Positions 2,209 through 26,076 of a stretch of 32,000 nucleotides of DNA are shown piece by piece. The stretch is from an uncultured Actinomycetota bacterium (lineage in GTDB: Bacteria; Actinomycetota; Actinomycetes; Propionibacteriales; Nocardioidaceae). The position numbers and the translations under genes were made by a program. How positions within the stretch are numbered: the stretch's first letter is position 1; each line of letters starts with the position of its first letter. The stretch lies in NCBI GenBank assembly GCA_963726885.1, contig CAVSDS010000007.1, positions 9,946 to 41,945 of the forward strand, written 5' to 3'. Below the pieces are notes generated by a model. It did no database searches. It was not told the DNA's origin and was given only the letters and a program-made list of their open reading frames with translations.

Positions 2209-5200
2209 ATGGAAAAGCCCGACCTGCACGTCCCCGAGCATCCGGTCCGCTTCGTCACGTCGTCAGCCCTGTTCGACGGGCACGACGCGAGCATCAACAT
2301 CATGCGCCGCATCCTGCAGTCGCAGGGTGCCGAGGTCGTGCACCTCGGCCACAACCGGGCGGTCAGCGAGATCGTCGCGGCGGCGCTGGAGGAGGATGTC
2401 CAGGGTGTCGCCGTGAGCTCGTACCAGGGCGGTCACGTCGAGTTCTTCGAGTACCTCGCGGAGTCGCTGCGGGAGCAGGGTGCCGGCCACATCAAGGTGT
2501 TCGGTGGTGGGGGTGGCGTCATCGTGCCCGACGAGATCGCCCGTCTGCGCGAGGCGGGCATCACGATCTTCTCCCCCGAGGACGGCCAGCGCTTCGGCCT
2601 CGCCGGCATGATCAACCAGATGGTCGAGGCGTGCGACCACGACCTCTGGGACGTCGCCCAGGCCGCCGCCGACGACGTGCTCGCCGGACAGCGTGGAGCC
2701 ATCGCCCGCGCCATCACCGGAGCCGAGACCGGTCGGCTCGACGACGCGCTCCGGTCCGCGATCCTCGATGCGGCGGAAGCCTCGAACGTTCCGCTGCTCG
2801 GCATCACCGGCACCGGCGGCTCCGGCAAGAGCTCGCTCACCGACGAGCTGGTGCGCCGGTTCCGCACCGACCAGCAGGACAAGCTCCGCATCGCCGTGCT
2901 GGCCATCGACCCCACGCGGCGCAAGGGCGGAGGGGCGCTGCTCGGCGACCGCATCCGCATGAACGCCCTGGACGGCGATCGCATCTACATGCGCTCGATG
3001 GCCACCCGTGGCGGTCACGAGCACCCCGAGCACCTCGACGACGTCATCGCCGTGCTGCGAGCGTCGGGCTTCGACCTGGTGATCATCGAGACCCCCGGCA
3101 TCGGCCAGGGCGACGCCGGCATCGTCCCGTTCGTCGACCGCTCGATGTACGTGATGACGCCGGAGTTCGGCGCCGCCTCGCAGCTGGAGAAGATCGACAT
3201 GCTCGACTTCGCCGACGTCGTCGCCATCAACAAGTTCGAGCGCCGCGGCGCCAAGGACGCACTGCGTGACGTCGGCCGCCAGCTCGTGCGCAACCAGGAG
3301 GCGTTCGACAAGCAACCGGGCGACATGCCGGTGTTCGGCACATCCGCCGCCACCTTCAACGACGACGGCGTCACCGCGCTCTACCACCACCTGGCCGGGA
3401 TGCTCCGCGAGGACGGCCTCGGGCTCGACGAGGGCGTGCTGCCGCACACCGACACGAAGGTCTCCACCGGCTTCGCCGCCGTCGTGCCGCCGGATCGGGT
3501 GCGCTATCTCTCCGAGATCGCCGAGACCGTGCGCGACTACCACGCCGACACCGAGCGGCTCGCTGACCAGGCTCGTCGCGTCCAGCGGCTCAGCGCCGTG
3601 GCGGACGAGCTCGACGAGCCCGGCGAGGTGGGCCGACTGCTCGACGAAGCACGCAAGGACCTCCCCCGCGACGTCTCCGAGCAGGTCGAGGGCTGGCCGG
3701 ACGTCGTCGAGTCGTACTCCGGCGACGAGCAGGTCGTGATCGTCCGCGACCAGGAGATCCACACGCAGCTCCAGCGCGAGTCGTTGTCCGGCAGCAGGAT
3801 CCCCCGCGTCAGCCTCCCCCGCACCACCGACCACGGCGACCTCGTCTCGTTCCTGCGGCGCGAGAACCTGCCCGGCTTCTTCCCGTTCAGCGCGGGCGTG
3901 TTCCGGTTCAAGCGCGACACCGAGGACGCGGCCCGGATGTTCGCCGGCGAGGGCGACCCATTCCGCACCAACCGCCGGTTCAAGCTGCTCTCCGAGGACG
4001 GCGAGGCCAACCGCCTCTCCACCGCCTTCGACTCCGTGACGCTCTACGGCCGCGACCCCGACCTCCGTCCCGACATCTACGGCAAGGTCGGCACGTCCGG
4101 AGTCTCGGTGGCCACGTTCGACGACATGCAGGCGCTCTACGACGGGTTCGACCTCCTCTCGCCGTCGACGTCGGTGTCGATGACGATCAACGGGCCGGCC
4201 CCGACCGTGCTCGCGTTCTTCCTCAACACCGCCATCGAGCAGGCCATCGCGACGTTCACGCGAGACCGAGGGCCGTGAGCCCGACGACACCGAGCGCTCC
4301 GAGCTGCGCGAGTCCGCGCTCCAGACCGTCCGCGGCACCGTGCAGGCCGACATCCTCAAGGAGGACCAGGGCCAGAACACGTGCCTCTTCTCGACCGAGT
4401 TCAGCCTCCGGATGATGGCCGACATCCAGGAGTGGTTCATCGAGCACCAGGTGCGCAACTTCTACTCGGTGTCGATCTCCGGCTACCACATCGCCGAGGC
4501 CGGGGCGAACCCCATCAGCCAGCTCGCCTTCACCCTCGCCAACGGGTTCACGTACGTCGAGTCCTACCTCGCGCGGGGCATGGACATCGACGACTTCGCA
4601 CCGAACCTGTCGTTCTTCTTCTCCAACGGCATGGACCCGGAGTACTCGGTGCTCGGCCGCGTGGCCCGGCGCATCTGGGCGGTCACGATGCGCGACCGCT
4701 ACGGCGCCAACGAGCGAAGCCAGAAGCTCAAGTACCACGTCCAGACGTCCGGACGCTCCCTGCACGCCCAGGAGATGAGCTTCAACGACATCCGCACCAC
4801 GTTGCAGGCGCTCATCGCCATCTACGACAACGCGAACAGCCTGCACACCAACGCCTTCGACGAAGCCGTCACCACACCGGGCAACGCGTCGGTGCGCCGG
4901 GCGCTCGCGATCCAGATGATCATCAACCGCGAGTGGGGCGTCGCGATGAACGAGAACCCCACCCAGGGCGCGTTCCTCACCGACGAGCTCACCGACCTCG
5001 TCGAGGCGGCGGTGCTCGCGGAGTTCGACAGCATCAGCGAGCGCGGCGGCGTGCTCGGGGCGATGGAGACGGGCTACCAGCGCGGCCGGATCCAGGACGA
5101 GTCGATGCTCTACGAGCAGCGCAAGCACGACGGGTCCCTGCCCATCGTCGGCGTCAACACGTTCCTCAACCCGAACGAGGACGAGGAGCCACCGACCGTC

Positions 5201-5431
5201 GACCTCGCCCGCGCCACCGAGGACGAGAAGAAGTCGCAGCTCGACCGTGTGCAGGCGTTCCAGAAGGAGCACCGCAGCGAGGCCACCGAGGCCATCGCCC
5301 GCCTCAAGGAGGCCGCGACGTCGGACGAGAACGTCTTCGCGGTCCTCATGGAGGCCGCACGGGTCTGCTCGCTGCAGCAGGTGACCGAGGCGTTCTTCGA
5401 GGTCGGCGGCCAGTACCGTCGTTCAGTGTGA
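2209..5431 (+). pseudogene. icmF: fused isobutyryl-CoA mutase IcmF (B12-binding domain + MeaB-like GTPase + mutase barrel), interrupted by one +1 frameshift as sequenced
   Basis: ORFs 2209..4278 and 4340..5431 together give the IcmF domain order: a B12 domain (SALFDGHDASINIMRRIL), a P-loop (GITGTGGSGKSSL) and a mutase core ([19 protein letters not shown]). The second frame is open back to about 4262 and reads ...[30 protein letters not shown]. Removing one G from GGG 4270-4272 restores ...TFTRDRGREPDD..., and 3222 nt then encode 1073 aa. Confidence 0.9.
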
Positions 5432-5928
5432 GCGACCTTCCCACGTACGACCAGATCACCCAGCTCCCTGCCAGCGACGAGCAGGTGGTGCCGCAGGAGT
5501 TCATCGACGAGAACGGTCACATGAACATCCGGCACTACTTCGACGCCGCGTCACTCGCGCTGTGGCGCGTCTGCATCGCTGCCGGCATGGACGACAGCTA
5601 CCACGAGGAGCGCGGCCTCTCGCTGTTCACCGTCGAGCAGCACCTCCGGTACTTCAGCGAGATGAACCTCGGCGACCGGTTCACCGTGCACGGCCGCCTG
5701 CTCGAGCGCTCCGGCAAGGTGCTTCACGGCATGGCGTTCGTCGTGTCGCAGGAGTCCCGATCCCTGGCGTGCACGTTCGAGGTGACGTACATCCACGTGG
5801 ACATGACCACCCGCCGGTCGGTCGGGATTCCTGACGACATGGCTGCCAGCTTCGACGCCGTGATCGCGCGCGGCGACGAGCTCGGCTGGGACGCTCCGGT
5901 GTGCGGTGCCATGGGCGTGCATCGATAG
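5428..5928 (+). CDS. hotdog-fold acyl-CoA thioesterase (4HBT-like)
   Basis: This is the C-terminal part of track ORF 4381..5928. The GTG at 5428 overlaps the icmF stop (GTGA at 5428-5431). The 166-aa product has a thioesterase-like pattern ([19 protein letters not shown]..., [31 protein letters not shown]). Confidence 0.7.
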
Positions 5929-8694
<2,766 letters not shown>

Positions 8695-8756
8695 TCTGCC
8701 AAGATGCGGCTCCGCGCCAGCGCTTTACGCTGAAGGCGGACAGAGGGAGGTCCTTC

Positions 8757-9271
8757 ATGAATGACGTTGACTGGTGGGTGTGGCTGATCGTCGCACTCGT
8801 CGTGATCGCGATCGTGCTGGCGCTCGTCGCCGCAGCTCGCAAGCGGAACGTGGAGCACGCACGGACGCGTGCCGCCAGCATCCGGGACGAGGCCGGGGAG
8901 CGCCGTGTCGAGGCACAACGCACCCAGGCGGCATCCGCCGCAGCCGAGGCCGACGCAGCCGAGGCGAAGCTGGAGGCCCAACGCCTGGAGCAGCGCGCCG
9001 CCGAGCTCGGGAACGAAGCGTCGACCGCCGATGCGGAGGCCGTTGAACGGGCGCGGAAGGCGGACAGCATCGATCCCGACGTGAGACGGACCGTGACCCC
9101 TCGCCGGGAGACGGCGAGGTCGGCAGGGACCGCGACGTCGATGTCGATCGAAACCGCGATGCGGACTTCGACGCCGACCGCCGGGACGACTCGGTGGGTC
9201 GGGACGACTCGGTACGTCGGGACGACTCGGTACGCCGGGACGACGACGGGTCCGTTGCCCGCTGACGACCT
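8757..9271 (+). CDS. small N-terminally anchored coiled-coil protein with Asp/Arg-rich repeat tail (needs a -1 correction near 9081-9086; as sequenced it reads on into the next gene)
   Basis: GGGAGG sits 7 nt upstream of the ATG at 8757. The N-terminus has a TM helix (WWVWLIVALVVIAIVLALVAAA) followed by an Ala/Glu/Arg coiled-coil region. After about 9083 the frame ending at TGA 9269-9271 (ETDRDPSPGDGEVGRDRDVDVDRNRDADFDADRRDDSVGRDDSVRRDDSVRRDDDGSVAR*) has coding-like composition (G-rich position 1, low-GC position 2). The track frame (TVTPRRETARSAGTATS...) does not. Confidence 0.4.
9183..9244 (+). repeat. 18-bp tandem repeat, 3 full units plus a partial fourth
   Basis: The units are GGGACGACTCGGTGGGTC (9183-9200), GGGACGACTCGGTACGTC (9201-9218) and GGGACGACTCGGTACGCC (9219-9236), followed by GGGACGAC... 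(9237-). They encode the hexapeptide repeat RDDSV(G/R) in the proposed frame. Confidence 0.85.
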
Positions 9272-10003
9272 CGGTACAGCCGTCGAGCTGACGGCACCGG
9301 CGAGACGCGTCGTCTCGCTCGTGCCGTCGCTCACCGAAGCCATCGCGGCGACTCGGCCCGAGGCGCTCGTCGGCGCCACCGACTGGTGCACGCACCCGGC
9401 CGACCTCGACGTCGACCGCGTACGGGGCACCAAGAATCCCGACCGGTCCGCCATCGCGGAGCTGGCGCCGGACCTGGTCGTCGCGAACCAGGAGGAGAAC
9501 CGCGAGCTGGACGTCGAGCGGTTGCGGGCCGACGGCATCGCCGTGTGGGTGACCCGCATCCGCACGCTCGACGAGGCGTTCGCCTCGATGCGGCGCCTGT
9601 TCACCGAAGCGGTCGGCTGGGACGTGCCGCACTGGCTGGAGGAGGCCGAGCAGGTCTGGTCCCGTCCTGCGTCGGCAGGCGGGCCGCGAGTCGCCGTCCC
9701 GATCTGGCGAGACCCGTGGATGGTGGTCGGCAGCGACACCTTCACCGGAGACGTGATCGCGCGGCTCGGCTGGCAGAACGTCTTCGAGGACAGCGACGAG
9801 CGCTACCCACGCATGGAGCTGGGCGAGATCGACCGCGACGACGTCGACCTCGTGCTGCTGCCGGACGAGCCCTACGTCTTCGGACCCGAGGACGGGCCCG
9901 AGGCCTTCACCCACGCGCCACCGCACTCGTCTCGGGCCGCGCACTGACCTGGTACGGGCCGTCACTGATCACGGCACGCGCCGAGCTGCAGGCAGTCCCT
10001 TAG
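9255..10003 (+). pseudogene. BtuF/TroA-like 'helical backbone' binding protein (cobalamin/metal-chelate binding family), -1 frameshift near the C-terminus as sequenced
   Basis: The core reads DDLGTAVELTAPARRVVSLVPSLTEAIAATRPEALVGATDWCTHP...DLVVANQEEN. The frame ends ...EAFTHAPPHSSRAAH* at 9947, but the frame of ORF 9386..10003 continues as TALVSGRALTWYGPSLITARAELQAVP*. One base appears to be missing around 9917-9922. The start is uncertain: TTG at 9255 gives (M)PADDLGT, and in-frame ATGs also exist at 9141 and 9159. No signal peptide is evident. Confidence 0.55.
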
Positions 10004-11402
10004 TCGTCGTCGCGATCCTGCCGAAGGCCCTCGACGCCTTGGCTGGCGAGCGTCTCGGCGTTCTTGCGGGCCTGCCGTGCCGACAACGCGCGGGGGGCCT
10101 GCCGGGCGTCGACCACGAACGGCTCGTCGGCCATCACGTACGGGGTCTCGCCCACGATCGCGTTGTGGCTTCCCGACGAGAGGTACTTGGCGCTGAGGTT
10201 GACGAGGGTGGCGAACCGGTTGCGGTTGCCGAGCAGCGTCACGATGTGCAGGCCGACCCAGATGACCCAGGCCGGGAAGCCGGTCAGCTTCGGCAGGAAC
10301 TTGATCTCCGCGACCGCGGAGGAGCGCCCGATGGTGGCCATCGTGCCCTTGTTGAGGTACTTGAACGGCTTGCGGGTCTTGCCCTTGAGATCGGCCTTGA
10401 TCACCTTCGCGACGTACTTGCCGCCCTGGATGGCGGGCTGGGCCAGCTGCGGCAGCTCATCCGGAGCCGATCGAGACGTCACCGATCGCGAAGACGTTGT
10501 CGAGGCCCTTGACGCGTCGCTGCTCGTCGGTCTCGATGCGGCCGCCGCGGCCCTGCGGCACGCCCCAGTCGGCGACGGACGGGTGCGCCGTGATGCCGCG
10601 TGGCCCAGACGACGATGCCGGCAGGAAGGAACTCCTGCTCGCCGTCGTGCTCCACCAGGACGCCGTCCTCGCGCACCTCCTTCACGGCGGTGTCGAGACG
10701 GAGGTCGACGTCGCGCTTCAGCAAGGATTTGCTGGCGTACTCACGCAGCTTCGGGGCGAACGGGCTGAGCACGTGCGGCAGCATCTCGACGAGGGTGATG
10801 TGGATGCGCTCGCGGTCGAGCTCCGGATAGGTGGTGGGCATGTCGAGGTTGCGCATCTCGGCGAACGCGCCCGCCGTCTCGACGCCGGTGGCGCCGCCGC
10901 CGACCACGACGATGCGCAGGTCGCGCTCCTGACCGTTGATGGCCGCGTACTCGAAGTTCGCGAACATCCGGTCGCGCACCTGGAGGGCCTGGGAGCGCTT
11001 GTAGAGCGGCATCGAGTACTTGTCGGCGCCGGGGACTCCGAAGAAGTTCGTGGTGACGCCGACGGCGATGACGAGGTAGTCGTACTTGACGTCGACGCCG
11101 CTCTCGAGGTGGAGCGTCTTGGCATCGTGGTTCATCGTCTTGACGACGCCCTTGAGGAAGCGGACGTTGCTCTGCTTGCCACGGATGGCGCGCAGGAACC
11201 AGGTGATGTCGCCCGGGTTCAGGCTGGCGGTCGCCACTTGGTACAGCAGCGGGTTGAACGTGTTGTAGGTGTGCCGGTCGATCAGGGTGACGTCGACGTC
11301 GGCGCGCTTGAGCTTGCGGACGGCCGCGATTCCTCCGAATCCGCCGCCCACGACGACGACGTGCGGACGCTTGCCGGACGCGGTGGTGGGAGTGGCGCTC
11401 AT
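10000..11402 (-). pseudogene. ndh: type II NADH dehydrogenase (NDH-2), two +1 frameshifts as sequenced
   Basis: ORF 10479..11402 carries two Rossmann motifs (VVVVGGGFGGIAA and VVVGGGATGVETAG). After ...GIVVWA the middle frame reads GITAHPSVADWGVPQGRGGRIETDEQRRVKGLDNVFAIGDVSIGSG. ORF 10000..10482 then supplies DELPQLAQPAIQGGKYVAKVI... The breaks lie at about 10596-10603 and 10458-10485. 1403 nt minus 2 gives 466 aa. Confidence 0.85.
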
Positions 11403-11408
11403 ACCTGA

Positions 11409-11414
11409 ATTCTA
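11409..11414 (-). promoter_or_regulatory. candidate -10 box (TAGAAT) for a leaderless ndh transcript
   Basis: The minus strand reads ...cgcgagTAGAATtcaggtATG. The hexamer fits TAnnnT, and 6 nt separate it from the ndh ATG (11402). That geometry is typical of leaderless actinobacterial mRNAs. Confidence 0.3.
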
Positions 11415-11446
11415 CTCGCGTGACGCAGGTTACTCCGGGCCAGGAC

Positions 11447-12501
11447 TCAGCGGGTGCCGGCGGTCCAGGCGCGCGACTCGTCTCGGTTGAGCAGCACCGT
11501 CACGGCCACCGCCGTGCCCGCGCCGAGCAGTCCCAAGGGCACAGGCACGAGCACGACTCCAACGACGGCGGTGATCCAGGCCAGTGCGAGCGTCAACGGA
11601 CGGCTGCGCGGCAAGCGCGCCAAGAGCGAGAAGCCCGCTGCGAACCCGGCGACGTGCCAACGGAAGAAGCACCAGGCATCCCCAGAACACCGAACGCATG
11701 GCTTCCTCGAGCTCGTCCGCCGAGAACATGTCGGCGAACGGACCATTGAGCACGATTTGCGACGTACTCGTCGCGGGCGAAGCCGTAGAAGAGCAGGTAG
11801 AGCGCCGCGAAGCCGCCGACGAGCGATGAACCGATCACGGTGACGAGCCCGGCGGCGAACACGGCGCGCGGCCGATGGGTGCTCCGCGCTGGTGGCGCCG
11901 ATTCCTCGATGGTCGGCACGCGCTGGACCGGAGCGGCCCACGGGTTGGGGCTCGGCGGTGGATCGGTCGCCGCATCGGGATAGGTGGCGCTGTCGGCGCC
12001 GCCGGCCTCGGTGGGAGACGGTCCGCCGATTCCGGGCGGCAGCTCCTTGCCCGCCGGGGCCAGTCGAGTCGCGTACCACTGACGCGCGTCGGCCGACCAC
12101 AGCATGGCGCCGGCGCCCAGCAGGAACATGGCCTGCAGCAGGCCGATCCATCCGAACGGCAGGACGAGCAGACCGATGATGACGGCCATCACCGTTGAGC
12201 CGACCCGCGACACCTGGTCGCCACGGGAGGCGTAGACGGCGAACACGATGCCGGCGACGAGCAGCAGCACGCAGCCCAGGCCCATCCAGCGCAACGTGCC
12301 GAGCAGATCGCCCATGCTCAGGTCGAAGCCCCGGTCGCTCAGCGTCGAGAGGGTGGGCTGCAGGCTCTTCTGCATCTCGATCGTGCCCCAGTCGCCGAGT
12401 GCCTGGATGAGGCTGACCAGCAGCAGGAACGCGCTGAAACCCACGAAACCGCAGGCCAGGGTGACGGCCGGTGGTCGGGGGGCAGCGCTCATGCCATCCA
12501 T
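11447..12501 (-). pseudogene. polytopic membrane protein with Pro-rich central linker, two +1 frameshifts as sequenced
   Basis: ORF 11593..12501 gives the N-terminal TM helices and a PSPTEAGG...PPPSPNPW linker. After ...FARDEYV the frame of ORF 11430..11753 reads SQIVLNGPFADMFSADELEEAMRSVFWG. The frame of ORF 11447..12511 then gives DAWCFFRWHVAGFAAGFSLL...AWITAVVGVVLVPVPLGLLGAG...*. The breaks lie at about 11753-11766 and at the C-run 11680-11683. Confidence 0.5.
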
Positions 12502-12539
12502 CCCACCACACGGTGAAAGCGGCCGTCGGAGTGCACGGC

Positions 12540-13298
12540 TCAGCGCTGATCGAGGTCGCCGCCGTAGCCCGTCACCACCGCCCGGCGCTCGGAGCCGCCC
12601 TCGAGGTAGGTGACGATGCGGACATCGATGTCGTAGAGCCGGCTGAGCGTCTCCTCGGTGAGCAGGTCATCGGCCACTCCGGAGGTCACGGCGTCCGGCC
12701 CGCCCATCAGCACGACGGTGTCGGCCAGGAAGAGCGCGTGGTCGGGGTGGTGGGTCGTCAGCAGCACGCTCATCCCGTCGGCCACGAGCTTGCGCAGCAG
12801 CGACAGGATCTGCGCCTGGTTGTGCAGGTCGAGCCCCGTGGTCGGCTCGTCCAGCACCAGCGCGGGTGACTCCGAGGCGATCGCCCGGGCGATGAGTACC
12901 AGCTGCTGCTCGCCGCCACTGAGAGTCGGGAACTGGCGTTCGGCCAGGTGGCCCATGCCGACTCGCTCCATGGCGTCCAGGGCGGCCACGCGGTCATCGC
13001 GCGACGGGGTCCCGAACAGGCTCACCTGCCGGACCCTCCCCATCACCACCATGTCGACGGCCCGGTAGGCGAACGCGCCGCCACGTGCCTGCGGCACGAA
13101 GCCGACCGTCCCGTCGTGCCTGACCGAGCCCTCTGCCGGCTTCAGCAGTCCGGCGGCGCAGCGAACGAGGGTCGTCTTGCCGCGGCCGTTCGGGCCGAGC
13201 ACGACAGTCACGGTCCCGGGTGGCACCTCGAGCGAGACGTGGCGGAACACCCAGCCTGTTTCTGGGTACCGGTGGCCGAGGTCGGCGAGCTCAAGCAC
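12540..13298 (-). CDS. ABC transporter ATP-binding protein (FecE/FepC/BtuD-like)
   Basis: Walker A GPNGRGKTT, signature LSGGEQQ and Walker B LVLDEPT are all present. I place the start at the GTG at 13298, which overlaps the permease stop (GTGCTTGA), rather than at the track start 13373. Confidence 0.85.
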   Translation of the reverse strand: MLELADLGHRYPETGWVFRHVSLEVPPGTVTVVLGPNGRGKTTLVRCAAGLLKPAEGSVRHDGTVGFVPQARGGAFAYRAVDMVVMGRVRQVSLFGTPSRDDRVAALDAMERVGMGHLAERQFPTLSGGEQQLVLIARAIASESPALVLDEPTTGLDLHNQAQILSLLRKLVADGMSVLLTTHHPDHALFLADTVVLMGGPDAVTSGVADDLLTEETLSRLYDIDVRIVTYLEGGSERRAVVTGYGGDLDQR

Positions 13299-14368
13299 TG
13301 TCCCAGATCCTGTCCCGGTTGCGACGGAGCAGCAGGAAGAACACCGGCGCACCGACGAGTGCGGTGAGCACACCCAGGGGAATCTCGCCGGCGGTGAGCG
13401 TGCGGGCGATCGTGTCGATCACGACCAGGAAGATCGCTCCGACCAGGAAGCTGACCGGCAGCAGGACCCGATGGTCGGGGCCGACCCACATCCGAGCGAG
13501 GTGCGGGATGACCAGGCCCACCCACCCGACCGCGCCGCTCACCGCGACCGCGCCCGCCACGACGAGCGCGCACGAGAGCAGGAACACCCAGCGCAGCCGA
13601 CTCGGGTTCAGTCCCAACGAGGACGCCTCGTCGTCGCCGAGGGACAGGACGTTGAGACGCCACCTCAGCATCAGCACGACGGCCGCGCCGAGGAGGATCG
13701 GCAAGGCGGCCACGCCGACCTTCGCCCAGGTGGCGGTGGCCAGGCTGCCCAGCAGCCAGAAGACGATCGCCGGCAGGGACGAGTACGGGTCGGCGAAGTA
13801 CTGCACGAGTCCGACGAGTGCTGAGAAGAACGAGCCGAGCACGACCCCGCCGAGCACGACCATGAGCATCGAGGAAGCTCGGCCGGCGGTCAGGGCGAAG
13901 AGGAGCGCGAGGGCGACGAGGCCGAACACGAAGGCGCCGCCCACGAGGAAGACCGTCCCGAGGCCGAGGAGCAACGCGATGGCTCCGCCGAGCGATGCTC
14001 CAGCCGAGACGCCGATGATGTCCGGGCTCACCAGCGGGATTGCGGAACGTCGCCTGGAGAGCGGCGCCGGCGACGCCCAGACCGCCACCGACCAGCACGG
14101 CCAGCAGCACCCGAGGGAGGCGGATGAGCTCGACGACGGTTCGCTCGGTCTCGCCCACTCCGTCGTCGGGGAACAGCCCGGACCCCAGGATCTGGACCAC
14201 GTGCGACACCGGCACGGTGTAGCGGCCGAGGGAGACGGCCACGACGATCGTCGCGACGAGCGCCACGGCTGCGACGACGACGGCGAGAGGTCCGCCGACT
14301 CCCTTCCGGGCGGCCGGCTCGTCCGCGACGACCTCAGGCCGAGAACTGGTCGTAGTCGGCGGAGTCAC
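13291..14368 (-). pseudogene. FecCD-family ABC permease, one +1 frameshift as sequenced
   Basis: The N-terminal frame (ORF 13208..14368) reads ...RLPRVLLAVLVGGGLGVAGAALQATFRNP. ORF 13291..14088 continues as LVSPDIIGVSAGASLGG...GEIPLGVLTALVGAPVFFLLLRR. Removing one base of the run at 14036-14038 joins them as FRNPLVSPD. The GTG start at 14368 overlaps the binding-protein gene by 35 nt. Confidence 0.8.
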
Positions 14369-15443
14369 CGTTCTCCTTCGTCCACAGCATGGTGTCGATC
14401 TCGGCCGGTGTGGGCGTGTGGTCGTAGAAGTAGATGTAGTCCTCGACGATCTTGTCGCGCAGTCCGCCGTCCGACCCGTCGGGGAACGCGATCTGCGACA
14501 GCCACCTCCACATCAGCGGCGACTCGTGGCTCGGTGGGTCCCAGCGGTATCCGCCCAGCGGTGCCCGGTAGACCCGACGCTCCTTCACCGCCGCGACGTC
14601 GCGCCAGCGGCGGTCGCCGTAGACGTCGTCGGGCATGGCCTCGTCGAAGTTCCCGAGCACGACGATCTCGGGATCCCAGTCCAGCACCTGCTCGAGATCG
14701 ACCTCCACCAGGCCCTTCACGTCGGACGAGACGTTCTCCGCGCCGACGAGCCGGATGTAGTCCTCGTTGAACGATCCGGCGCCCTGCACGGTCAGGCTGT
14801 CGGTGAAGCGGTTGAAGTAGAGGACTCGCGGTGCGCGCGCCGTCCGCTCCGCCGCGACCGCCTCGACGTTGGCGCGGTCGGCATCGAGGCGGGCGGCCAT
14901 GGCACGACCGCGCTCGGGCCGCCCCAGCGCCGTGGAGAACATCTCGAGCCAGGTCCCGACGTCCTCCAGCTTCCCGTAGTTGACGCCAAGGACCTTCAGG
15001 CCGGCGTTCTCCAGCGGCTGGACGATCTCATCGCCTTGGTTGGCCCACTGCACCACCACGTCCGGCTCGAGGGCGAGGATCCCCTCGACGTTCGGGGCGA
15101 AGTCCTGCGTTCCCACGTCGTGGGGAACCTTGAGCACCTCGGGGAACATCGTGCCCAGGATGCTCTGGCGCGCCGCGGCGAACGAGGCGTCGTGGATGCC
15201 GACGAGGTGCTCTGCGGATCGGTCGACAGCGATCATGATCGAGGCGGCTGGCATCGGCAGGGTGACGATGCGCCTGGCCGGGCCATCGAGCGAGATCTTC
15301 TTGCCCCGCTGGTCCTCGATGACGAGCTTCTTGCTGGCGGCGGGCTCGGACGAGCCGCACGCGGGGAGCATCGCGAGGCCGCCCAGGGCGACAGCTCCCT
15401 TCAGTAGGGTTCTGCGGGGCAGTGCCTCCGGCTGGAAGTCCAT
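14334..15443 (-). CDS. ABC substrate-binding lipoprotein, class III (FecB/BtuF/heme-type periplasmic binding fold)
   Basis: 369 aa and intact. It has a twin-arginine-like signal with a lipobox (PRRTLLKGAVALGGLAMLPAC). AAGGA lies 8 nt upstream of the ATG at 15443. The PBP-2-like core is RIVTLPMPAASIM...LEPDVVV. Confidence 0.8.
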   Translation of the reverse strand: MDFQPEALPRRTLLKGAVALGGLAMLPACGSSEPAASKKLVIEDQRGKKISLDGPARRIVTLPMPAASIMIAVDRSAEHLVGIHDASFAAARQSILGTMFPEVLKVPHDVGTQDFAPNVEGILALEPDVVVQWANQGDEIVQPLENAGLKVLGVNYGKLEDVGTWLEMFSTALGRPERGRAMAARLDADRANVEAVAAERTARAPRVLYFNRFTDSLTVQGAGSFNEDYIRLVGAENVSSDVKGLVEVDLEQVLDWDPEIVVLGNFDEAMPDDVYGDRRWRDVAAVKERRVYRAPLGGYRWDPPSHESPLMWRWLSQIAFPDGSDGGLRDKIVEDYIYFYDHTPTPAEIDTMLWTKENGDSADYDQFSA

Positions 15444-15458
15444 CGCGCTGTTCCTTTC

Positions 15459-16296
15459 TCAGGTGCCCAGAGAGGGCGGCTGGTCCTTTGTGTAGGTTTC
15501 CTTCGTTGACGATGCGCATGTGTCGCACGGTGAAGTCGCGGAGATACCGCACCTGACGGCCGCTCAGCTTGTCGCAGGCCCATTCCCAGTGCATCGAGAT
15601 CCAGTCGCCCACCTCGAGGTCGTCCATCATGCTGACCCCGTCGACCGACCGCTCGACGGTCTCGGTGATGCGTTCGCCGAAAGCCAGGGTTCGCCCATCC
15701 CATGTCAGCGGGGTCGACTCGACGACCACCTGGTCACCGTGGACCGCCTTCACCTTGCCCCAGCGGATACGGCACTGGTCCAGCACCGTGAGGGCGTGCT
15801 CGGCCTTGCGGCCGTCGCTCAGCAGTCCGGTCCAGGGGTAGATGCAGAACACGGCGAAGCTGTGGTGCGGGACGCCCCCGGCGTTGACGCTCTCAGTCAG
15901 AGTCGAGAAAGCCGACCCGGTCATCGCCCGGAAGCGGTCCTCCATCGAGTTGCCGACCGCTGTCGGCGTGACCCGGTTGAGGCGCGAGTTGCCCGACCCA
16001 GTAGGCGTCGACCACCCGGCGGTCGAGTGGGTCGTCGAGGCCGAGCGAGGCCGCGATGAGCTCGAGGTACGGCCAGGCTCCCGCGAACTGGCGGGAGAGG
16101 GAGCGAAGGCCGAGGTCGACGTCGTCGGACGTCCTTCGGCACCGTGCCCTTGGGCGCCTTCGGCACCGTGCTCGAAGAACGCGCCGTGGTCGGCCGGGCC
16201 GCAGTAGCCGTGGGAGTTGGGCGGGAACGCGTACCGAGCGAACAACACCGGTCCGCTGACCGGTGTGCGACGCCGCACGGCCGTCTGCTCAGACAT
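15459..16296 (-). pseudogene. hydrogenase-cluster-associated conserved protein (resembles what I recall as DUF6390), three frame disruptions as sequenced
   Basis: The N-terminus reads VLFARYAFPPNSHGYCGP. The middle segment is only sensible in another frame (DDVDLGLRSLSRQFAGAWPYLELIAASLGLDDPLDRRVVDAYWVG). The sequence then returns to the first frame (NSRLNRV...HHSFAVFCIYPWTGLL...WEWACDKLSGRQVRYLRDFTVRHMRIVNE). The tail frame gives ETYTKDQPPSLGT* with its stop at 15459-15461, 15 nt before the next ATG. The breaks lie at about 16125-16170 (-1), 15992-15994 (+1) and about 15500 (+1), so the net length is consistent with 278 aa. Confidence 0.55.
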
Positions 16297-16546
16297 CGCT
16301 GGCCTCGTCCGGCTCGCGCGCCTGTCCCATCATCTCCAGCCCAGACATCGCCTCGGCTGCCGCTTCGGCGTCGACGATCTCGAGGGCGAAACCCATGTGG
16401 ATGAGCACCCAGGTCCCAGGTCGTGGGGGATCGTCGAGCATCCCGATGTTGATGGTGCGCTGCACGCCTTCGACGTCGACCATGGCCAGCTGGTCGCCGT
16501 GTCCGTCGACCATCTCGACGACCCGTCCGGGGATGCCCAGGCACAT
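16289..16546 (-). CDS. hypC: [NiFe]-hydrogenase assembly chaperone HypC/HupF family
   Basis: 85 aa starting with MCLGIPGRVVE, the invariant N-terminal Cys. GGGAGGA lies upstream. The ATG is 2 nt after the protease stop. The 3' end overlaps the next gene's start by 8 nt (ATGTCTGA). Confidence 0.88.
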   Translation of the reverse strand: MCLGIPGRVVEMVDGHGDQLAMVDVEGVQRTINIGMLDDPPRPGTWVLIHMGFALEIVDAEAAAEAMSGLEMMGQAREPDEASDV

Positions 16547-16548
16547 GG

Positions 16549-17043
16549 TCAGGTCCTCCCTCGGGCCGCAGCATCGGCCGGGACGTGCTCGTCGATGACC
16601 CGCCGGACGGCCTCGGCCGCCACCGGCACGGCGGCCTGCACCTGCGGGCTCAGGCCGATGCCTTCCTCGACGCTCGCCGGGCGGCACCCGACCACGAACG
16701 TCGGTGGCAGCTCGCCCCCGAGGGCACGGAGGCTGCCGAGGACGGCGAGCGGGTCCATGCCGTGTGCATCCAGCTCGGCGGTACCGATGTCGTCCGGTCC
16801 GACCTGCATGACGACCACGTCGCCGGGCGCGCCCTCGCCGGGCATCGCATCGACGATGACCAGCGCCGTGCAGCCGTCGAGCAGGTCGTACGCGAGGTGC
16901 ATGCCGCGGATGCCGTAGTCGACGACGCGTACGTCGCCGGGCAGCGTGTCCTCGGCCGTGAGGTGTCGCGCGACCTCCGGCCCGAAGCCGTCGTCGCCGA
17001 GGAACAGGTTGCCGATGCCGGCGACCAGGATCGAGGAGCTCAG
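16549..17043 (-). CDS. [NiFe]-hydrogenase maturation endopeptidase (HupD/HybD family); start codon unresolved
   Basis: The frame reads SSSILVAGIGNLFLGDDGFGPEVARHL...VVDYGIRGMHLAYDLLDG...ALVIVDA...GTAELDAHGMDP. There is no ATG, GTG or TTG between the upstream in-frame stop and this conserved N-terminus. The start is therefore either the CTG at 17043 (a CTGA overlap with the upstream stop) or the ATG at 17048 with one C missing from the run at 17043-17045. Confidence 0.8.
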   Translation of the reverse strand: MSSSILVAGIGNLFLGDDGFGPEVARHLTAEDTLPGDVRVVDYGIRGMHLAYDLLDGCTALVIVDAMPGEGAPGDVVVMQVGPDDIGTAELDAHGMDPLAVLGSLRALGGELPPTFVVGCRPASVEEGIGLSPQVQAAVPVAAEAVRRVIDEHVPADAAARGRT

Positions 17044-17351
17044 GGCATGTCCTCCGCCCTGCCGGTGCCACCGGTATGGTCCGGGCCGGTCTCACCCGTG
17101 CCCTCGCCGGGGTCGTCGGACTCCTCCTGTGCCGGCTGCTCGTCGGCGGGCGATGCCGTCGCGCCGCCTTCCGTCTCGTCCGGGTCGGGTTCACTCGGCC
17201 CGTCGGACGACGAAGGAGCGGCAGCTCCGGCCGTGCTCGGATCGTCACTTGCGGTTCCTCCGCCGGGGTCAGCCGACTCCTTGCGGTCGTCGTACGGCGG
17301 GACGGTCTTGCCCTCGGTGTCCGGGTTGTCCGGATCGGGAATCGTCGTCAT
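17040..17351 (-). CDS. acidic, Pro/Asp/Glu/Gly-rich low-complexity protein (103 aa)
   Basis: GGAGG lies 5 nt upstream of the ATG at 17351. The sequence is MTTIPDPDNPDTEGKTVPPYDDRKESADPGGG...EESDDPGEGTGETGPDHTGGTGRAEDMP*. It is co-directional and tightly packed within the hydrogenase operon. I recognise no family. Confidence 0.4.
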   Translation of the reverse strand: MTTIPDPDNPDTEGKTVPPYDDRKESADPGGGTASDDPSTAGAAAPSSSDGPSEPDPDETEGGATASPADEQPAQEESDDPGEGTGETGPDHTGGTGRAEDMP

Positions 17352-17352
17352 G

Positions 17353-17556
17353 TCAGCCTCCGCTCTGCAGGTCCGGGGACTCAGGGTCGATGGGCTCCTG
17401 TGGATCGACTCCGGAGTCGTCGTCCTCATCCGCATGTCCGACCGGGCGGTCAGCCGGGCCGGCGTCGGGCCCTTCGGAACCCTCGTCGCGCGACCCCTCT
17501 GGTCCACGCTCCTCCTGCGGCTCCTCGGTCAGGCCTTCTCCTGGTGTCTCGCTCAT
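17353..17556 (-). CDS. acidic low-complexity protein (67 aa)
   Basis: GAGGAGGAGG lies directly upstream of the ATG at 17556. The sequence is MSETPGEGLTEEPQEERGPEGSRDEGSEGPDAGPADRPVGHADEDDDSGVDPQEPIDPESPDLQSGG*. The stop is 1 nt before the next ATG. Confidence 0.4.
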   Translation of the reverse strand: MSETPGEGLTEEPQEERGPEGSRDEGSEGPDAGPADRPVGHADEDDDSGVDPQEPIDPESPDLQSGG

Positions 17557-17587
17557 GTCCTCCTCCTCGGCTTGGTGGTCGGCGCAC

Positions 17588-17707
17588 TCACATGCGCCGC
17601 ATCTTCAGGTACCGGTTGATGTCGGGGATGGACATCAACAACACGATGATCCCCGCGAGCACGACAACGGCGATGACGCTGGTGGTGATGATGCCGATGA
17701 CTCTCAT
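17588..17707 (-). CDS. 39-aa single-pass membrane miniprotein (not in the ORF track)
   Basis: The ATG at 17707 overlaps the stop of the 465-aa gene (ATGA). The product is MRVIGIITTSVIAVVVLAGIIVLLMSIPDINRYLKMRRM*: one hydrophobic helix and a basic PDxxRYLKMRRM tail. It resembles short actinobacterial DUF-type miniproteins as I recall them, but this is unverified. Confidence 0.5.
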   Translation of the reverse strand: MRVIGIITTSVIAVVVLAGIIVLLMSIPDINRYLKMRRM

Positions 17708-19101
17708 GGGTGAATCTCCTCTCTGTCTGCGCTGGTCTCGACGGGCATGGGTTTCAGCTCGTCAGGTGAGAAGTAGAAGTAGCGGCCGTACCACTCGTGC
17801 ATGTCCGCGGCAGGATCGTCGACCAGCACCACCGCGACGTGCGAGCCGCCGTCGACGTCGGAGAGCACCGCGGTGACGCGGGCGACCTTGCCGGCGAAGA
17901 AGATGTCGTGGGCGTCGGCGCGACGACTCGGATGGACCGTGACGAGGCTGCCCTTCGACACGCTCACCCCGTCGATCACCACCGCGTCGGTCTCTGGTGA
18001 GACCGCCTCGTCGGTCTCCGGGTCCCACCACGGGACGTCGTCGTCAGCACCGAACGTCGGCGGTTCGACGTCACGGATGTCGGACAACACCGGCCACGAC
18101 GGTTCCTCCGGTGCCGCGACTGGAGCGCCGGCGTGCGGGTTGCGCAGGATGCCGTGCATCTGAGCCAGCGTCTCCGGCGTCATCTCGTCGCAACGGTCGA
18201 TGATCTCTCGGGCCTTCGGGTCGGTCGCTCGTGCCTCGGCCTTCTCCTCATCGGTCATCGTCATGACGCGCAGGGTGAGGATCTCGTCGATCTCGGTCGC
18301 GTCGTACAGGGCGCCGGGGCTCTCCGCCGCGATCTCGGGATGGTCGTACAGGATGATCGGCAGACCGAGGACGAGGTCCGTGTCGCCCGGCTCACCGCCG
18401 AGCACAGGCCAGCACCGGTGCTGGGAGCACGCGACCGCCGCGTCCACCAGCTCATCAGGCGGCTCGAACAGAGACACGAACTCGGCGTCGTGCGCCTCGA
18501 TGATGACGTGGGTGCCGATGAGCGAGTACCGGGTCGCCTCGATCGCATCTGCACCGCAGCCGTCATGGAGGTTGGACACGGTGATATCGAGGCGTTCGCA
18601 TCCATCCACCGGTGCGGTCGCGAGGTGGATCTCGGCGTTCAGCGGCCACTGGCGGCGAATCACGCTGCCCACGCCCTCGGCGAGCTGCTGCACATCCTGC
18701 CCACCCTCGACCTGGACGGGAAGGACGATGCCGCCCGCCTCGAGATCGAACCGGGACAGCTCGAAGGTGAGCTCCTGCTCCACGGCCTCGTCCCAGCTCA
18801 ACCACGACGTGCCGGCGGCGTCAGTGAGCTTGGCAACCGGCATGCCGTCTGCGTCATGCAGGCCGCGGTGCTGTAGCTGGAGGAACCGCAGGTGCACCAC
18901 GAGCCGCGCGGACGACGTGAGCAGGCACTGCATCGACATCGTCGAGGACTCACCGACTCCGGCCGCCTCGGCGCCCACCGGACCGAGCACGCCGAACTGC
19001 CAGCGCGTCTGGTTCTTGCTCGAGCTCGCGCGGTAGGGATACAGCAGGTACCCCTCGTAGAGGACGGCGTCGGCGACGGCCCGGGCCAGGTCGAGCCTCA
19101 T
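17704..19101 (-). CDS. conserved hypothetical protein (465 aa), hydrogenase-cluster associated
   Basis: Intact ORF. The ATG at 19101 overlaps the upstream stop (ATGA). The N-terminus reads AVLYEGYLLYPYRASSSKNQTRWQFGVLGP. I cannot assign any domain. Confidence 0.7.
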   Translation of the reverse strand: MRLDLARAVADAVLYEGYLLYPYRASSSKNQTRWQFGVLGPVGAEAAGVGESSTMSMQCLLTSSARLVVHLRFLQLQHRGLHDADGMPVAKLTDAAGTSWLSWDEAVEQELTFELSRFDLEAGGIVLPVQVEGGQDVQQLAEGVGSVIRRQWPLNAEIHLATAPVDGCERLDITVSNLHDGCGADAIEATRYSLIGTHVIIEAHDAEFVSLFEPPDELVDAAVACSQHRCWPVLGGEPGDTDLVLGLPIILYDHPEIAAESPGALYDATEIDEILTLRVMTMTDEEKAEARATDPKAREIIDRCDEMTPETLAQMHGILRNPHAGAPVAAPEEPSWPVLSDIRDVEPPTFGADDDVPWWDPETDEAVSPETDAVVIDGVSVSKGSLVTVHPSRRADAHDIFFAGKVARVTAVLSDVDGGSHVAVVLVDDPAADMHEWYGRYFYFSPDELKPMPVETSADREEIHP

Positions 19102-19739
19102 GGCGCCACCTCCGCCCGCGAGTGCAACAGGTGCGAGAGCGTCTCTTCCCAGGACGTGAGTCCGTGCTCCGTGCGGTAGGCGGCGACCTCATCGAGCACG
19201 TCGGCGTCGACACGCAACCAGCCGGTGTGCGGGTAGTACATCTCGATCATCTGGCGCCAGACGGCAACCGGCATCTGGTGACTGGTGTCGCAGTCCCAGG
19301 GCACCTGCTCCACGGCGAATCCGTTCTCGCCGCGCGTGAAGATGACCCCCGAGAACATGAAGGACAGCGGCACGTCGCCGTCGCCGACGGCGTGAAGGTA
19401 GCGCGAGCCGACCACTTCGAAGTCGTACGTGGCCGGCATCGGGAGGTCGACCTCCGTCACTCCCGTGAAACCCTGCACGGTGGTGCTGCACTGCATCCAC
19501 AGGAACGGGCGCAACGTCTCGGACCAGCGCTCGCGATCACCGAACAGGTCGCGCAGGCCCGCGGCGTCGTCGTCGGAGTACCCACGTCGCTGTGGGTCGA
19601 TGCGGACCTGGCAGCGCAGGGCGATCGCGTGGACGACGACGCCGGTGCTCTCCTCGATGTGCAGGCGGGCGGTGAGCTGGGGCGCGGCCGCGTAGGGCTC
19701 GGCGAAGACATCGAGGACACGGAAGTCGAAGCTGCTCAC
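19098..19739 (-). CDS. conserved hypothetical protein (213 aa; resembles what I recall as DUF6084)
   Basis: The GTG at 19739 is preceded by GAGGAGGGG 5 nt upstream. The protein starts (M)SSFDFRVLDVFAEPYAAAPQLTARLHIEESTG.VVHAIALRCQVRIDPQRRGY. In the track it forms the C-terminal half of ORF 19098..20543. Confidence 0.65.
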   Translation of the reverse strand: MSSFDFRVLDVFAEPYAAAPQLTARLHIEESTGVVVHAIALRCQVRIDPQRRGYSDDDAAGLRDLFGDRERWSETLRPFLWMQCSTTVQGFTGVTEVDLPMPATYDFEVVGSRYLHAVGDGDVPLSFMFSGVIFTRGENGFAVEQVPWDCDTSHQMPVAVWRQMIEMYYPHTGWLRVDADVLDEVAAYRTEHGLTSWEETLSHLLHSRAEVAP

Positions 19740-20405
19740 GACTGCCCCTCCTCGACCGCGCGGGGCGGGGCGGCTGCGCGACTGGACCATCGCGAAGAAC
19801 TTCTCCATGGCGGCCCGGGCCTCCTGACCTCCGTCGAACCCGCGCCACGTCTGGCGCATCGTGCCGACGAGCTCGTAGCAGACGTCGATCGGCACCAGCG
19901 TGCAGACGAAGTCGCCGCGGTCGTGGTCGGAACGATGGATGAGCAGGGCCTCGACGTCGGGCAGCAGGGCTCCCAGCTGCGGATTCGTCTCGAGGAGGCG
20001 GTCCCACGCCTCCAGGGGCAGCTCGGACTCCGTCGCGCCGGCCGGGCTGGGATAGAACGCCACCAACCGGTCCTGCACCGAGTTGCGGAAGCAGAAGACC
20101 AGGCCCACCGGGATCTGAAGATCGTCCCAGGCTGCCTGGTCGAGCACGAAGTCGTCGAAGGAGAGATATCGGTCGGGCACCGCCCGGTATCTCAGCTGCG
20201 CGGTCTGGTCGGTGAAGAGCAGGTAGCACGCGCGGCACGTGCACATCAGGCTGCGCGTCTCGAGGCCGACGACGTGCTGGTGCTCCTCGGTGATCGGCTC
20301 CGCGCACATCTCGCACCGCTCTCCGGGCACGACCTGAGGGCGTGTGGTGCTGATGCGTCTCAGGGTCGCGAGCGGCACACCGCCGCCGCGACCCGGGCCG
20401 GTCAT
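19736..20405 (-). pseudogene. Cys-rich conserved hypothetical protein (resembles what I recall as DUF5947); as sequenced it reads through into the next gene (probable +1 indel near the 3' end)
   Basis: The ATG at 20405 overlaps the hhyE stop (ATGA). A Cys cluster is present (GERCEMCAEPITEEHQHVV...LMCTCRACYLLF). The alternative frame near the end reads ...AAAPPRAVEEGQS* with a TGA that overlaps the next GTG (GTGA at 19736-19739). The length of 670 nt equals 3n+1. The break cannot be localised better than about 19740-19800. Confidence 0.6.
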
Positions 20406-21331
20406 GCCACCTCGGGAGTCAGGACGGCGACGGAGATCGTGTCGCCCTCGGTGAGCAGCGGGAGCGGGTCGAGGTGAAGCTCGGGCACGTCGATGCAGCT
20501 GCCGGCCTTGCGGACGTCGTAGTGCACCTGGCAGCTGGGGCACCTGAGCAGGGCGTCACCGGTGGCGCCGCCGAGGCGTCGGGCGAGCACGGATCCGGCC
20601 AGGCTGGACTCGCACCTCGCGCAGCGGTCGACGTAGGCGAAGATGTCCGAGCCGATCCGGCAGGCCAGCACGCTGGTGTCGCCGACGCGAGTGGTGAGGA
20701 CCTCCCCTGCCCCGAGGCCGGCAAGCTCGGCGACCGGGTGCCAGGCCCCGCTGGGCGCGTCCTCGTGCAGGCGCGACATCAGTGAGCCCACCGGGATGAG
20801 AGCCGGACCGGCCGGTGCCGACTCCGACGGTGTCTCGACCTCGATGGACACCACCTCCGGTGCGGCCGCCTCGATCGCACCCTCGACGGCGAGCTTCAAC
20901 GTCACCGAGGACGACGGGCAGCCGTCGCAGCTGCCGAGCAGCCGGAGGCGCACGGTGCCGTCGTCGGTCACCGCGAGCAGCTCGACGTCGCCGCCGTGCG
21001 AGCCCAGGTAGGGCCGCACGCTCTCCAATCCATCCTCGACCCGCTGCTCGACGCTGTACGGGTGGAGCCCGTGCACCAGCAACAAGCCGGAGACGAGCTC
21101 ATCAGAAGCAAGCTCGCGCAGGAGGTCGTCGTCGAGGTGGCCGGACTCGTGCAAGATCTCCATCGCCCGTTCAAGTCCCGACCCATACAGGTCGGTCACC
21201 AGCCTGACCAGCTCCTCAGCACGTTCACGGGCGACCACACCGCCAGTGGCACTCGCCGTCAGGAGCGCATCGATGCGTTCGCCAGTCGCACCCAGGTCTG
21301 ACGTCTGATCAGGTGACTCCTCGTGCGCCAT
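20402..21331 (-). CDS. hhyE: NifU-C-terminal-domain / Rieske-like-domain iron-sulfur protein (HhyE-like)
   Basis: 309 aa. It has a NifU-type segment (VRPYLGSHGGDVELL...GSCDGCPSSSVTL). The C-terminal beta-rich domain carries C237-x2-C240-x23-C264-x2-C267-x2-H270. The gene lies immediately downstream of hhyL, the position of HhyE in mycobacterial Hhy loci. Confidence 0.7.
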   Translation of the reverse strand: MAHEESPDQTSDLGATGERIDALLTASATGGVVARERAEELVRLVTDLYGSGLERAMEILHESGHLDDDLLRELASDELVSGLLLVHGLHPYSVEQRVEDGLESVRPYLGSHGGDVELLAVTDDGTVRLRLLGSCDGCPSSSVTLKLAVEGAIEAAAPEVVSIEVETPSESAPAGPALIPVGSLMSRLHEDAPSGAWHPVAELAGLGAGEVLTTRVGDTSVLACRIGSDIFAYVDRCARCESSLAGSVLARRLGGATGDALLRCPSCQVHYDVRKAGSCIDVPELHLDPLPLLTEGDTISVAVLTPEVA

Positions 21332-21339
21332 GTCGGCGC

Positions 21340-23139: not shown

Positions 23140-23167
23140 GACGCCGCCTTTCTGTGGAGTTGGAGAA

Positions 23168-24223: not shown

Positions 24224-24224
24224 G

Positions 24225-24252
24225 CCAGACCCGCTTTCCGGGCGGGGTCTGG
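24225..24252 (-). promoter_or_regulatory. GC-rich stem-loop abutting the hhyS start codon
   Basis: The mRNA sense reads CCAGACCCCGC-ccggaaa-GCGGGTCTGG, then c, then AUG. This forms about 10 bp with one bulge. The only purine-rich SD-like stretch (GGAAAGCGGG) is inside the hairpin. No U-tract follows, so it is not a classic terminator. Confidence 0.35.
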
Positions 24253-24360
24253 GCCCTCACTCCACTGCTGGGGCCGACTTCCGGTCCGCACACGCAGCGT
24301 CAGTCCCATTAGAAGACGGGCGGGTGCGGCTGTCAACAGACAAATGAGAGCCACGTCACA

Positions 24361-25185: not shown

Positions 25186-25186
25186 C

Positions 25187-25516
25187 TCAGACCACCTCCA
25201 CGGAGGTGACTGCGAGCTCTCGCCCGGCCACCACCTCGACATCGGCACTTCCACATTCACAGAGAAGGATCAGGTCGTCCTTCTCGAACTCACGGTCGCA
25301 GCTGCGGCAGTGCGCCCGGCCCGACGGCTCGACGATCTCCAGCGTCGCACCCTCCAGCGGGGTGCCGGCGGTGGCCAGCTCGAAGCAGAACTCCAGGGCA
25401 GCGGGAACGACGCCCGACAACCGCCCGACCGCAAGCCGTACGGTCGTCACCCGCCGCTCTTCCGTTCGTTCGAGAATCGCCTCGACGACGGACTCGGCGA
25501 TGGCCAGCTCATGCAT
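25187..25516 (-). CDS. hypA: hydrogenase nickel-incorporation protein HypA
   Basis: The start is at 25516, giving the invariant MHE N-terminus (MHELAIAESVV), with GAGGTGG upstream. The zinc motifs are C-x2-C (CRSC) and C-x-C (CEC). The product is 109 aa. Confidence 0.9.
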   Translation of the reverse strand: MHELAIAESVVEAILERTEERRVTTVRLAVGRLSGVVPAALEFCFELATAGTPLEGATLEIVEPSGRAHCRSCDREFEKDDLILLCECGSADVEVVAGRELAVTSVEVV

Positions 25517-25538
25517 GGCACCACCTCGCTGTCTTTTC

Positions 25539-25568
25539 ACCATAGGTCGGCCCTCGTCGGAGTGGCAA
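25539..25568 (-). promoter_or_regulatory. candidate hypA promoter (TTGCCA-N18-TATGGT)
   Basis: The minus strand reads cTTGCCActccgacgagggccgaccTATGGTgaaaagacagcGAGGTGGtgccATG. The -10 fits TAnnnT, and the SD follows in the short leader. Confidence 0.35.
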
Positions 25569-25584
25569 GGACGACAATGGTGCG

Positions 25585-26049: not shown

Positions 26050-26076
26050 AAATCGACCCTCGGTCATCCACTGCTC

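Follow-up and report, generated by a model that had tools for sequence, protein, structure and literature searches.

The 32,000-nucleotide stretch of DNA considered here (the window; positions 9946-41945 of contig C7 of genome G000, an uncultured member of the Nocardioidaceae) contains a series of otherwise full-length genes, from icmF, encoding a fused isobutyryl-CoA mutase, to a DUF6084 gene accompanying a [NiFe]-hydrogenase, that are each interrupted by one or more shifts of a single base. This raises the question of whether these genes are decaying in the organism or whether the breaks belong instead to the assembled sequence, and of why they are confined to part of the window. Comparison with related genomes placed 13 such frame disruptions in nine genes between positions 4260 and 19760, namely, ten apparent insertions (+1) and three apparent deletions (-1) of one base, the same split as had been proposed from the sequence alone. 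As addressed below, these breaks very probably arose as single-base errors in the consensus of a metagenome-assembled genome (MAG) that is noisy and probably based on long reads, and not as mutations of the organism.

C7, at 43.9 kb, is the smallest of the 16 contigs of the G000 assembly (2.95 Mb, 69% GC). Because raw lists of open reading frames (ORFs) are uninformative at 69% GC, genes were framed on the basis of GC content at third codon positions (GC3) and codon usage, together with a seven-state frame hidden Markov model (HMM) trained on long ORFs of G000. A genus-wide search yielded genome G022 (six contigs, 98% complete), which is collinear with the whole window at 84-88% nucleotide identity and in which the counterpart of every window gene is intact. 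Also used in the comparisons were genomes G031, G063 and G008, for views of individual sites, the complete genome G010 and, for some proteins, G007.

The breaks were located by three methods, namely, DNA phase-tracking against G022, in which the window-minus-G022 coordinate offset modulo 3 was followed along the alignment, inspection of individual sites alongside as many as four relatives, and a frameshift-aware protein-to-DNA alignment by dynamic programming, run with G022 proteins. The three approaches agreed, recovering all 13 disruptions of the original prediction, most within a few bases of where they had been placed, with offsets of 10-25 nt for two of them and of about 28 nt for a third. 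Sharp single-base steps relative to G022 were seen at 4260, 8534, 9915, 10465, 10599, 11655, 11761, 14039, 15995 and 19760 (the last a net change of -2), with less sharp steps at 8990-9107, 15448-15472 and 16140-16147. In the site views, G022, G031, G063 and G008 are one base short of the window or, at 9915, have one base more. The frame HMM likewise picks out most of these sites, as switches of frame on one strand that leave gaps of 0-16 nt, while Pfam profile coordinates run on across the breaks in icmF, the FecCD permease gene and ndh.

On the plus strand, icmF (about 2221-5428; 1075 aa) carries an apparent +1 at 4259-4262 (4260/61) and not at the GGG of 4270-4272, as initially proposed. 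The frame changes after residue 685 of 1075, and two ORFs share the Pfam MM_CoA_mutase profile, which divides at 150/159. In serA (7101-8691; 530 aa), an apparent +1 lies at 8533-8537 (8534/35; residue 478), where G022, G031 and G063 each contain one base fewer. The gene for a small membrane-anchored coiled-coil protein with an acidic tail (about 8778-9313) shows an apparent -1 at 9080-9090 (about 9085; residue 99), with the Asp/Arg-rich tail matching G022 in the shifted frame only. This break is the weakest of the 13, given that G022 is its sole support and that the region is of low complexity. In the gene for a BtuF-like periplasmic binding protein (about 9246-9997), an apparent -1 falls in a C-rich run at 9915-9922 (residue 312), with G022, G010, G008 and G007 all continuing '...EAFTHAP / ALVSGRALTWYGPSL' in the other frame.

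The remaining breaks are found in genes on the minus strand. In ndh (10003-11402), encoding a type II NADH dehydrogenase, apparent +1 shifts lie at 10464-10466 (10465; residue 312) and 10597-10600 (10598/99; residue 268). The gene for a membrane protein (11450-12492; 344 aa) is likewise affected twice, with apparent +1 shifts at 11653-11656 (11654/55; residue 278 of 344), where three relatives are one base short, and at 11759-11762 (11760/61; residue 243). The former had originally been assigned to 11680-11683. In the gene for a FecCD-type ATP-binding cassette (ABC) permease (13294-14251), an apparent +1 at 14037-14040 (14038/39; residue 72) splits the Pfam FecCD profile at 74/70.

The DUF6390 gene (15466-16248, minus strand; 259 aa) is broken three times. 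An apparent +1, originally put at about 15500, lies at 15470-15476 (about 15472-15475), four to five codons ahead of the stop; it corresponds to a base absent in all four relatives and is where shifts were placed against G031 and G063. As this shift bypasses the TGA at 15459-15461, an ORF spanning 15028-16296 arises, with a false extension of 146 aa over the neighboring binding-protein gene. A second apparent +1, supported by four relatives, lies at 15993-15996 (15994/95; residue 82 of 259), while a frame change of -1 (a net difference of +8 nt relative to G022; residue 35) is given as the range 16130-16148, since it occurs within a variable segment. Both internal breaks were confirmed by G022 and G008. 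Searching with relatives' proteins by tblastn, as had been recommended for pinning down the breaks, misled once. In single-frame tblastn the breaks were masked, the protein of a relative being aligned in one frame across two true frameshifts 144 nt apart, and were then resolved by frameshift-aware alignment of the region 15466-16269. Off-frame ORFs of the relatives matched as well, at 50-65% identity, these being homologous high-GC DNA. As such, coverage by a single high-scoring segment pair (HSP) is no proof of an intact frame in DNA of this composition.

In the DUF6084 gene, also on the minus strand and originally listed as that of a Cys-rich protein with a break at about 19740-19800, the frame change (a net difference of -2 nt relative to G022, equivalent to +1) was placed at 19742-19775 (about 19760; residue 214), i.e., in the last nine or so codons. 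In the window, DUF6084 and DUF5947 read in frame as one ORF of 481 aa (19098-20543), whereas in all four relatives they are separate genes that share a 4-nt GTGA/ATGA stop/start overlap. When read in the shifted frame, the window version of DUF6084 ends with '...AVEEGQS' and a stop on GTGA, with the G022 counterpart ending '...AMAEGEQP'. The break in the tail thus hides the stop/start overlap and generates a false in-frame DUF6084-DUF5947 fusion.

Over their whole lengths, the products of icmF, serA, ndh and the FecCD, DUF6390 and DUF6084 genes retain 88-94% amino acid identity with their G022 counterparts; identity is lower for the membrane protein (70%) and the small coiled-coil protein (59%). 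Identity is equal on both sides of the breaks and of the same level as in intact neighbors, so that no decay is visible, in line with the initial observation that each downstream frame continues the expected protein. The absence of nonsense mutations and larger deletions was also borne out, with no internal stop codons or larger deletions being seen in the broken genes in comparison with G022.

Such fully conserved downstream frames are also what would be expected of truly recoded genes, in which programmed ribosomal frameshifting or transcriptional slippage restores the frame and the genes are functional as written. Here, however, no slippery or repeat motif is common to the 13 sites, none of the four relatives presents a shift at any of them, with all frames being uninterrupted, and single genes would need two to three shifts, in both directions, something that is to our knowledge without precedent in programmed frameshifting of the prfB or dnaX type. 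Recoding is therefore scarcely conceivable as the explanation.

The frequency of similar breaks across G000 was considered by comparison with two relatives. Against G010, using ORFs drawn from 20 segments of 20 kb, 33 frame changes between adjacent HSPs were detected in 160 orthologues (166 kb of coding sequence), corresponding to 0.20 frameshifts per coding kb, with 28 of the 160 orthologues being affected. Against 440 kb of contig C6 of G022, 40 events were detected in 239 kb of coding sequence (0.167 per coding kb, or 0.130 outside the cluster in the window), affecting 29 of 243 aligned orthologues (241 once double mappings were removed). Across both comparisons, 12-18% of orthologues are thus affected. 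An ab initio search with the frame HMM, which recovers about 40% of the true events in the window, returned 338 candidates in G000 (0.115 per kb), as compared to seven in 440 kb of G022 (0.016 per kb) and four in 400 kb of G010 (0.010 per kb). With the same detector, the rate in G000 is hence about 8-10 times that of two good relatives. Similar breaks were found across all of the larger contigs, in genes including those for nuoG (two events), the E1 component of a 2-oxoacid dehydrogenase, biotin carboxylase and acyl-CoA dehydrogenases; in the window, the housekeeping genes serA and ndh are affected. In addition, marker completeness of G000 is 84.4% at 16 contigs, while relatives with one to six contigs reach 94-100%.

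The events also share a signature. Apparent insertions outnumber apparent deletions by about 4:1, both in the comparison with G022 (32:8) and in the ab initio search (264:74). Of 24 insertions cleanly resolved as a single gap relative to G022, 21 have no identical base as a neighbor, and the inserted bases are C (seven), G (seven), A (six) and T (four). Three of five clean deletions fall in runs of two to five identical bases. The sites in the window show the same signature as the rest of the genome, and no shared sequence motif was apparent at the sites when these were judged by eye. The initial impression that several breaks sit in short G/C runs accordingly holds to a limited extent, with most inserted bases lying outside homopolymers.

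These same observations bear on whether the breaks could be true mutations, i.e., fresh pseudogenes created in the organism or its dominant clone by a recent burst of single-base indels, such as a mutator episode. The deposited sequence does contain the breaks, these are clustered as a local mutagenic event might leave them, and the clean genes next to them show the assembler to have been capable of a good consensus nearby. Yet every larger contig carries breaks of the same kind, the rate being 8-10 times that of the relatives, and the genes affected include nuoG, serA and ndh. Bacterial gene decay is generally described as deletion-biased, the opposite of the bias toward insertions seen here, and only one-base offsets (modulo 3) were found in place of a mixed spectrum of lesions. 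Nor is there the relaxed constraint past the lesion that decay would bring, with conservation being the same upstream and downstream. Likewise, mismatch-repair-deficient mutators place indels in homopolymers, whereas most of those in G000 lie outside of them. Finally, the combination of low marker completeness and high contiguity is a known mark of indel-rich assemblies (PMC8103633). Decay of the type seen in Mycobacterium leprae also involves many disrupted genes, sometimes with several lesions each, but leaves lesions of mixed type (stops, deletions and insertion sequence elements), along with relaxed constraint and a lower coding density. No such features were seen in G000. True mutation is thus a highly improbable reading. 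Its more specific form, in which the breaks are real in the sampled population and record a recent, localized burst of non-homopolymer insertions in a 7.6-kb stretch and in similar patches elsewhere, is extremely improbable; if true, this would mean that mutagenesis can act locally and favor insertions in a way not described for bacteria.

The preference for assembly or consensus indel error over gene decay expressed in the original prediction was therefore supported, if indirectly, in that the breaks are genome-wide, exceed the rate in relatives, are biased toward insertions, are not accompanied by decay, affect housekeeping genes and go together with depressed completeness. What had seemed hard to reconcile with a uniform error rate was their distribution. 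Indeed, 11 of the 13 events fall within a dense core of 7.6 kb (8534-16147; 1.44 per kb), for which the rate in the rest of the genome predicts about one (P about 9e-9). At the same time, frameshift-aware comparison with G022 revealed no coding frame changes at 1-4.2 kb, at 20.4-32 kb or in the rest of C7. At the background rate, 2.1-3.2 events would be expected in these clean flanks, and the probability of finding none is 0.04-0.13. The clean flanks are in keeping with this rate, as are the isolated events at 4260 and 19760.

Clustering beyond chance is a property of the assembly as a whole. Counts in non-overlapping bins of 15 kb are overdispersed (variance/mean 1.88; dispersion test P = 3e-12) and, in the ab initio search, rates differ six-fold between contigs (0.05-0.32 per kb), 4.4% of 15-kb segments match or exceed the density of the one studied here and the densest is found at 25-40 kb of contig C3. 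There, comparison of positions 25.4-40.2 kb with contig C5 of G022 revealed at least 30 single-base offsets, including a run of insertions at 25.4-25.9 kb, about nine offsets within 1.2 kb and 12 single-base deletions in 1.7 kb (38.45-40.18 kb). Patches in G000 span 7-15 kb, and no obvious difference in GC content between the patch in the window and its flanks was seen. The uneven distribution in the window thus presents no puzzle, since the error rate is non-uniform across the entire assembly.

The location of the patch and the identity of the inserted bases do, however, allow for a variant of the artefact explanation that is not independent of it. Here, two co-occurring strains would have been collapsed into one consensus, such that a substitution was written as an insertion plus a deletion with both alleles kept in tandem, and the patch would be a stretch where both strains were abundant and divergent. 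Four of eight cleanly resolved +1 sites have, side by side in the window, both alleles that the relatives show at a single position (15995, C/G; 14039, G/A; 10599, G/C; 11761, C/G), and the patch falls where gene content varies among relatives, with the inserted serC-like/serA pair and an island of ABC and hydrogenase genes. Collapsed alleles are documented as a source of apparent frameshifts in a diploid eukaryote (PMC8445201). On the other hand, a chance match is expected at about 0.2 per site given divergence of about 15%, so that, by rough estimate, four of eight sites correspond to a non-significant P of about 0.06. The other four sites contain no such allele, and the assembly includes no second haplotype contig of the region. 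Collapse of two strains is hence considered unlikely.

Consensus errors of a noisy assembly thus being favored, the course of events can be pictured as follows. The G000 assembly would carry several hundred such single-base errors, arranged in patches of roughly read length. In these patches, raw-read indels would have survived because reads were locally too few or polishing too weak to clear them. In the window, the region at 8.5-16.1 kb would be one such patch, while the events at 4260 and 19760 would belong to the genome-wide background. Both the sequencing platform and the cause, whether low coverage in these places or a failure of polishing, are our inferences.

Two points weigh against this explanation. 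Consensus errors in nanopore data are typically described as indels in homopolymers, and the errors in G000, mostly single-base insertions outside homopolymers, differ from this classical signature of homopolymer deletion. Moreover, the hydrogenase structural genes beside the patch are clean and 98-99% identical to those of G022, meaning that whatever degraded the consensus stopped abruptly.

In other respects, the situation in G000 resembles what has been described for error-prone assemblies. Nanopore and PacBio continuous long read (CLR) assemblies and MAGs with ORFs truncated by indels, as diagnosed by 'ideel'-type approaches, similarly present single-base frameshifts in conserved genes and more predicted pseudogenes (PMC8103633). 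In such indel-rich assemblies, marker completeness is about 85% despite few contigs, completeness of published long-read MAGs rose from about this value to 94-95% after frameshift correction, and the effect of indel errors is stronger at low coverage (PMC8103633). Likewise, the assembler, the sequencing platform and the depth of coverage have been found to give rise to spurious pseudogenes (Cooley and Wright, 2024; PMC11017572). As in G000, these are frameshifted 'pseudogenes' absent from close relatives; that study relied on whole-genome counts, whereas here patchiness within one genome was resolved (variance/mean 1.9).

The value of these findings is practical rather than biological. Gene calls, pseudogene counts and completeness estimates for G000, as well as fusions and 'novel long ORFs', are unreliable, with the DUF6084-DUF5947 fusion and the 146-aa DUF6390 extension serving as examples of false calls in the window. 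Other stretches of G000 will show similar patches, and their annotations need to be read with this in mind. Since errors within a single MAG can be over 10-fold denser in one place than a few kb away, a clean neighborhood offers no guarantee for an adjacent broken gene.

A possible 14th break, i.e., a fourth deletion, had been suspected at the start of the HycI-type hydrogenase maturation protease gene (17043-17045). This is not a frameshift. At the junction between a variable acidic ORF and the protease gene (17040-17050, minus strand), the TGA of the former occupies 17042-17040 and a CTG lies at 17043-17041. No ATG, GTG or TTG start is available to the protease frame in any of five genomes (the window, G022, G008, G031 and G063), all of which instead contain a GGAGG sequence, a spacer of 6-8 nt, a CTG and a conserved N-terminus, 'ILVAGIGN'. 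This conserved arrangement suggests that the protease is translated from a CTG start codon.

Single-base differences at 8695, 16546-16571, 24223, 25185 and 26096 were also set aside, being either intergenic or else gene-junction variation common to some relatives. Those at 24223 and 25185 each fall in the short gap that separates a ribosome-binding site from its start codon, and that at 26096 in the spacer ahead of the nickel-transporter gene. The statement that 20.4-32 kb is free of breaks is thus true for coding sequence. The intergenic differences at 8695, 24223, 25185 and 26096 may reflect natural variation or additional consensus errors.

Turning to the remaining gene content, the window opens with genes for an acyl-CoA oxidase and a MarR regulator, with a small ORF between them, followed by icmF, a thioesterase gene (5428-5925) and a pair consisting of a class-V aminotransferase (serC-like) gene and serA (5953-8691). 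Beyond the small coiled-coil and BtuF-like genes, the minus strand carries ndh, the membrane-protein gene and the set encoding an ABC ATPase, the FecCD permease and a binding protein. This is followed by the [NiFe]-hydrogenase accessory genes, encoding DUF6390, HypC, the HycI protease, the variable acidic ORFs, a 465-aa protein, DUF5947, DUF6084 and a NifU-Rieske protein, and then by genes for the large and small hydrogenase subunits, HypB, HypA, a Fur-family regulator and a NicO nickel transporter. The far end of the window contains clpB, an FAD oxidoreductase gene and a DUF3556 gene.

The ABC importer and complete hydrogenase cluster together occupy 12540-27241, between the membrane-protein gene and clpB. 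This block is common to G022, G031, G063 and G008; in G010, the membrane-protein gene and clpB are adjacent, and G007 offered no match to the block. Being present in some relatives and absent in G010, the block constitutes a variable island in this genus. Its hydrogenase accessory genes presumably resemble those of actinobacterial high-affinity (group 1h-type) hydrogenase loci, and the closest named matches to the large subunit are from long-read soil MAGs, together with an Aeromicrobium MAG at 93%. Within the island, two small, very acidic, low-complexity ORFs (17046-17590, minus strand), for which no Pfam match was found, come after a conserved small membrane protein ('...IPDINRYLKMRRM'). 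Of the genomes compared, G008 shares these ORFs with the window and G031 has them in part; G022 and G063 lack them.

Gene content also varies closer to the start of the patch. Between its BtuF-like gene and ndh, contig C6 of G022 contains an extra minus-strand gene of 271 aa (12515-13330 of the compared stretch) that is absent from the window (9993-10017) and from G010. Similarly, the serC-like/serA pair is found next to icmF in only a subset of genomes, namely, G022, G031, G063, G043, G032, G060 and G050. Other members of the genus have only a distant serA-like homologue (33-35% identical) elsewhere, one of which is also found in G000, on contig C15.

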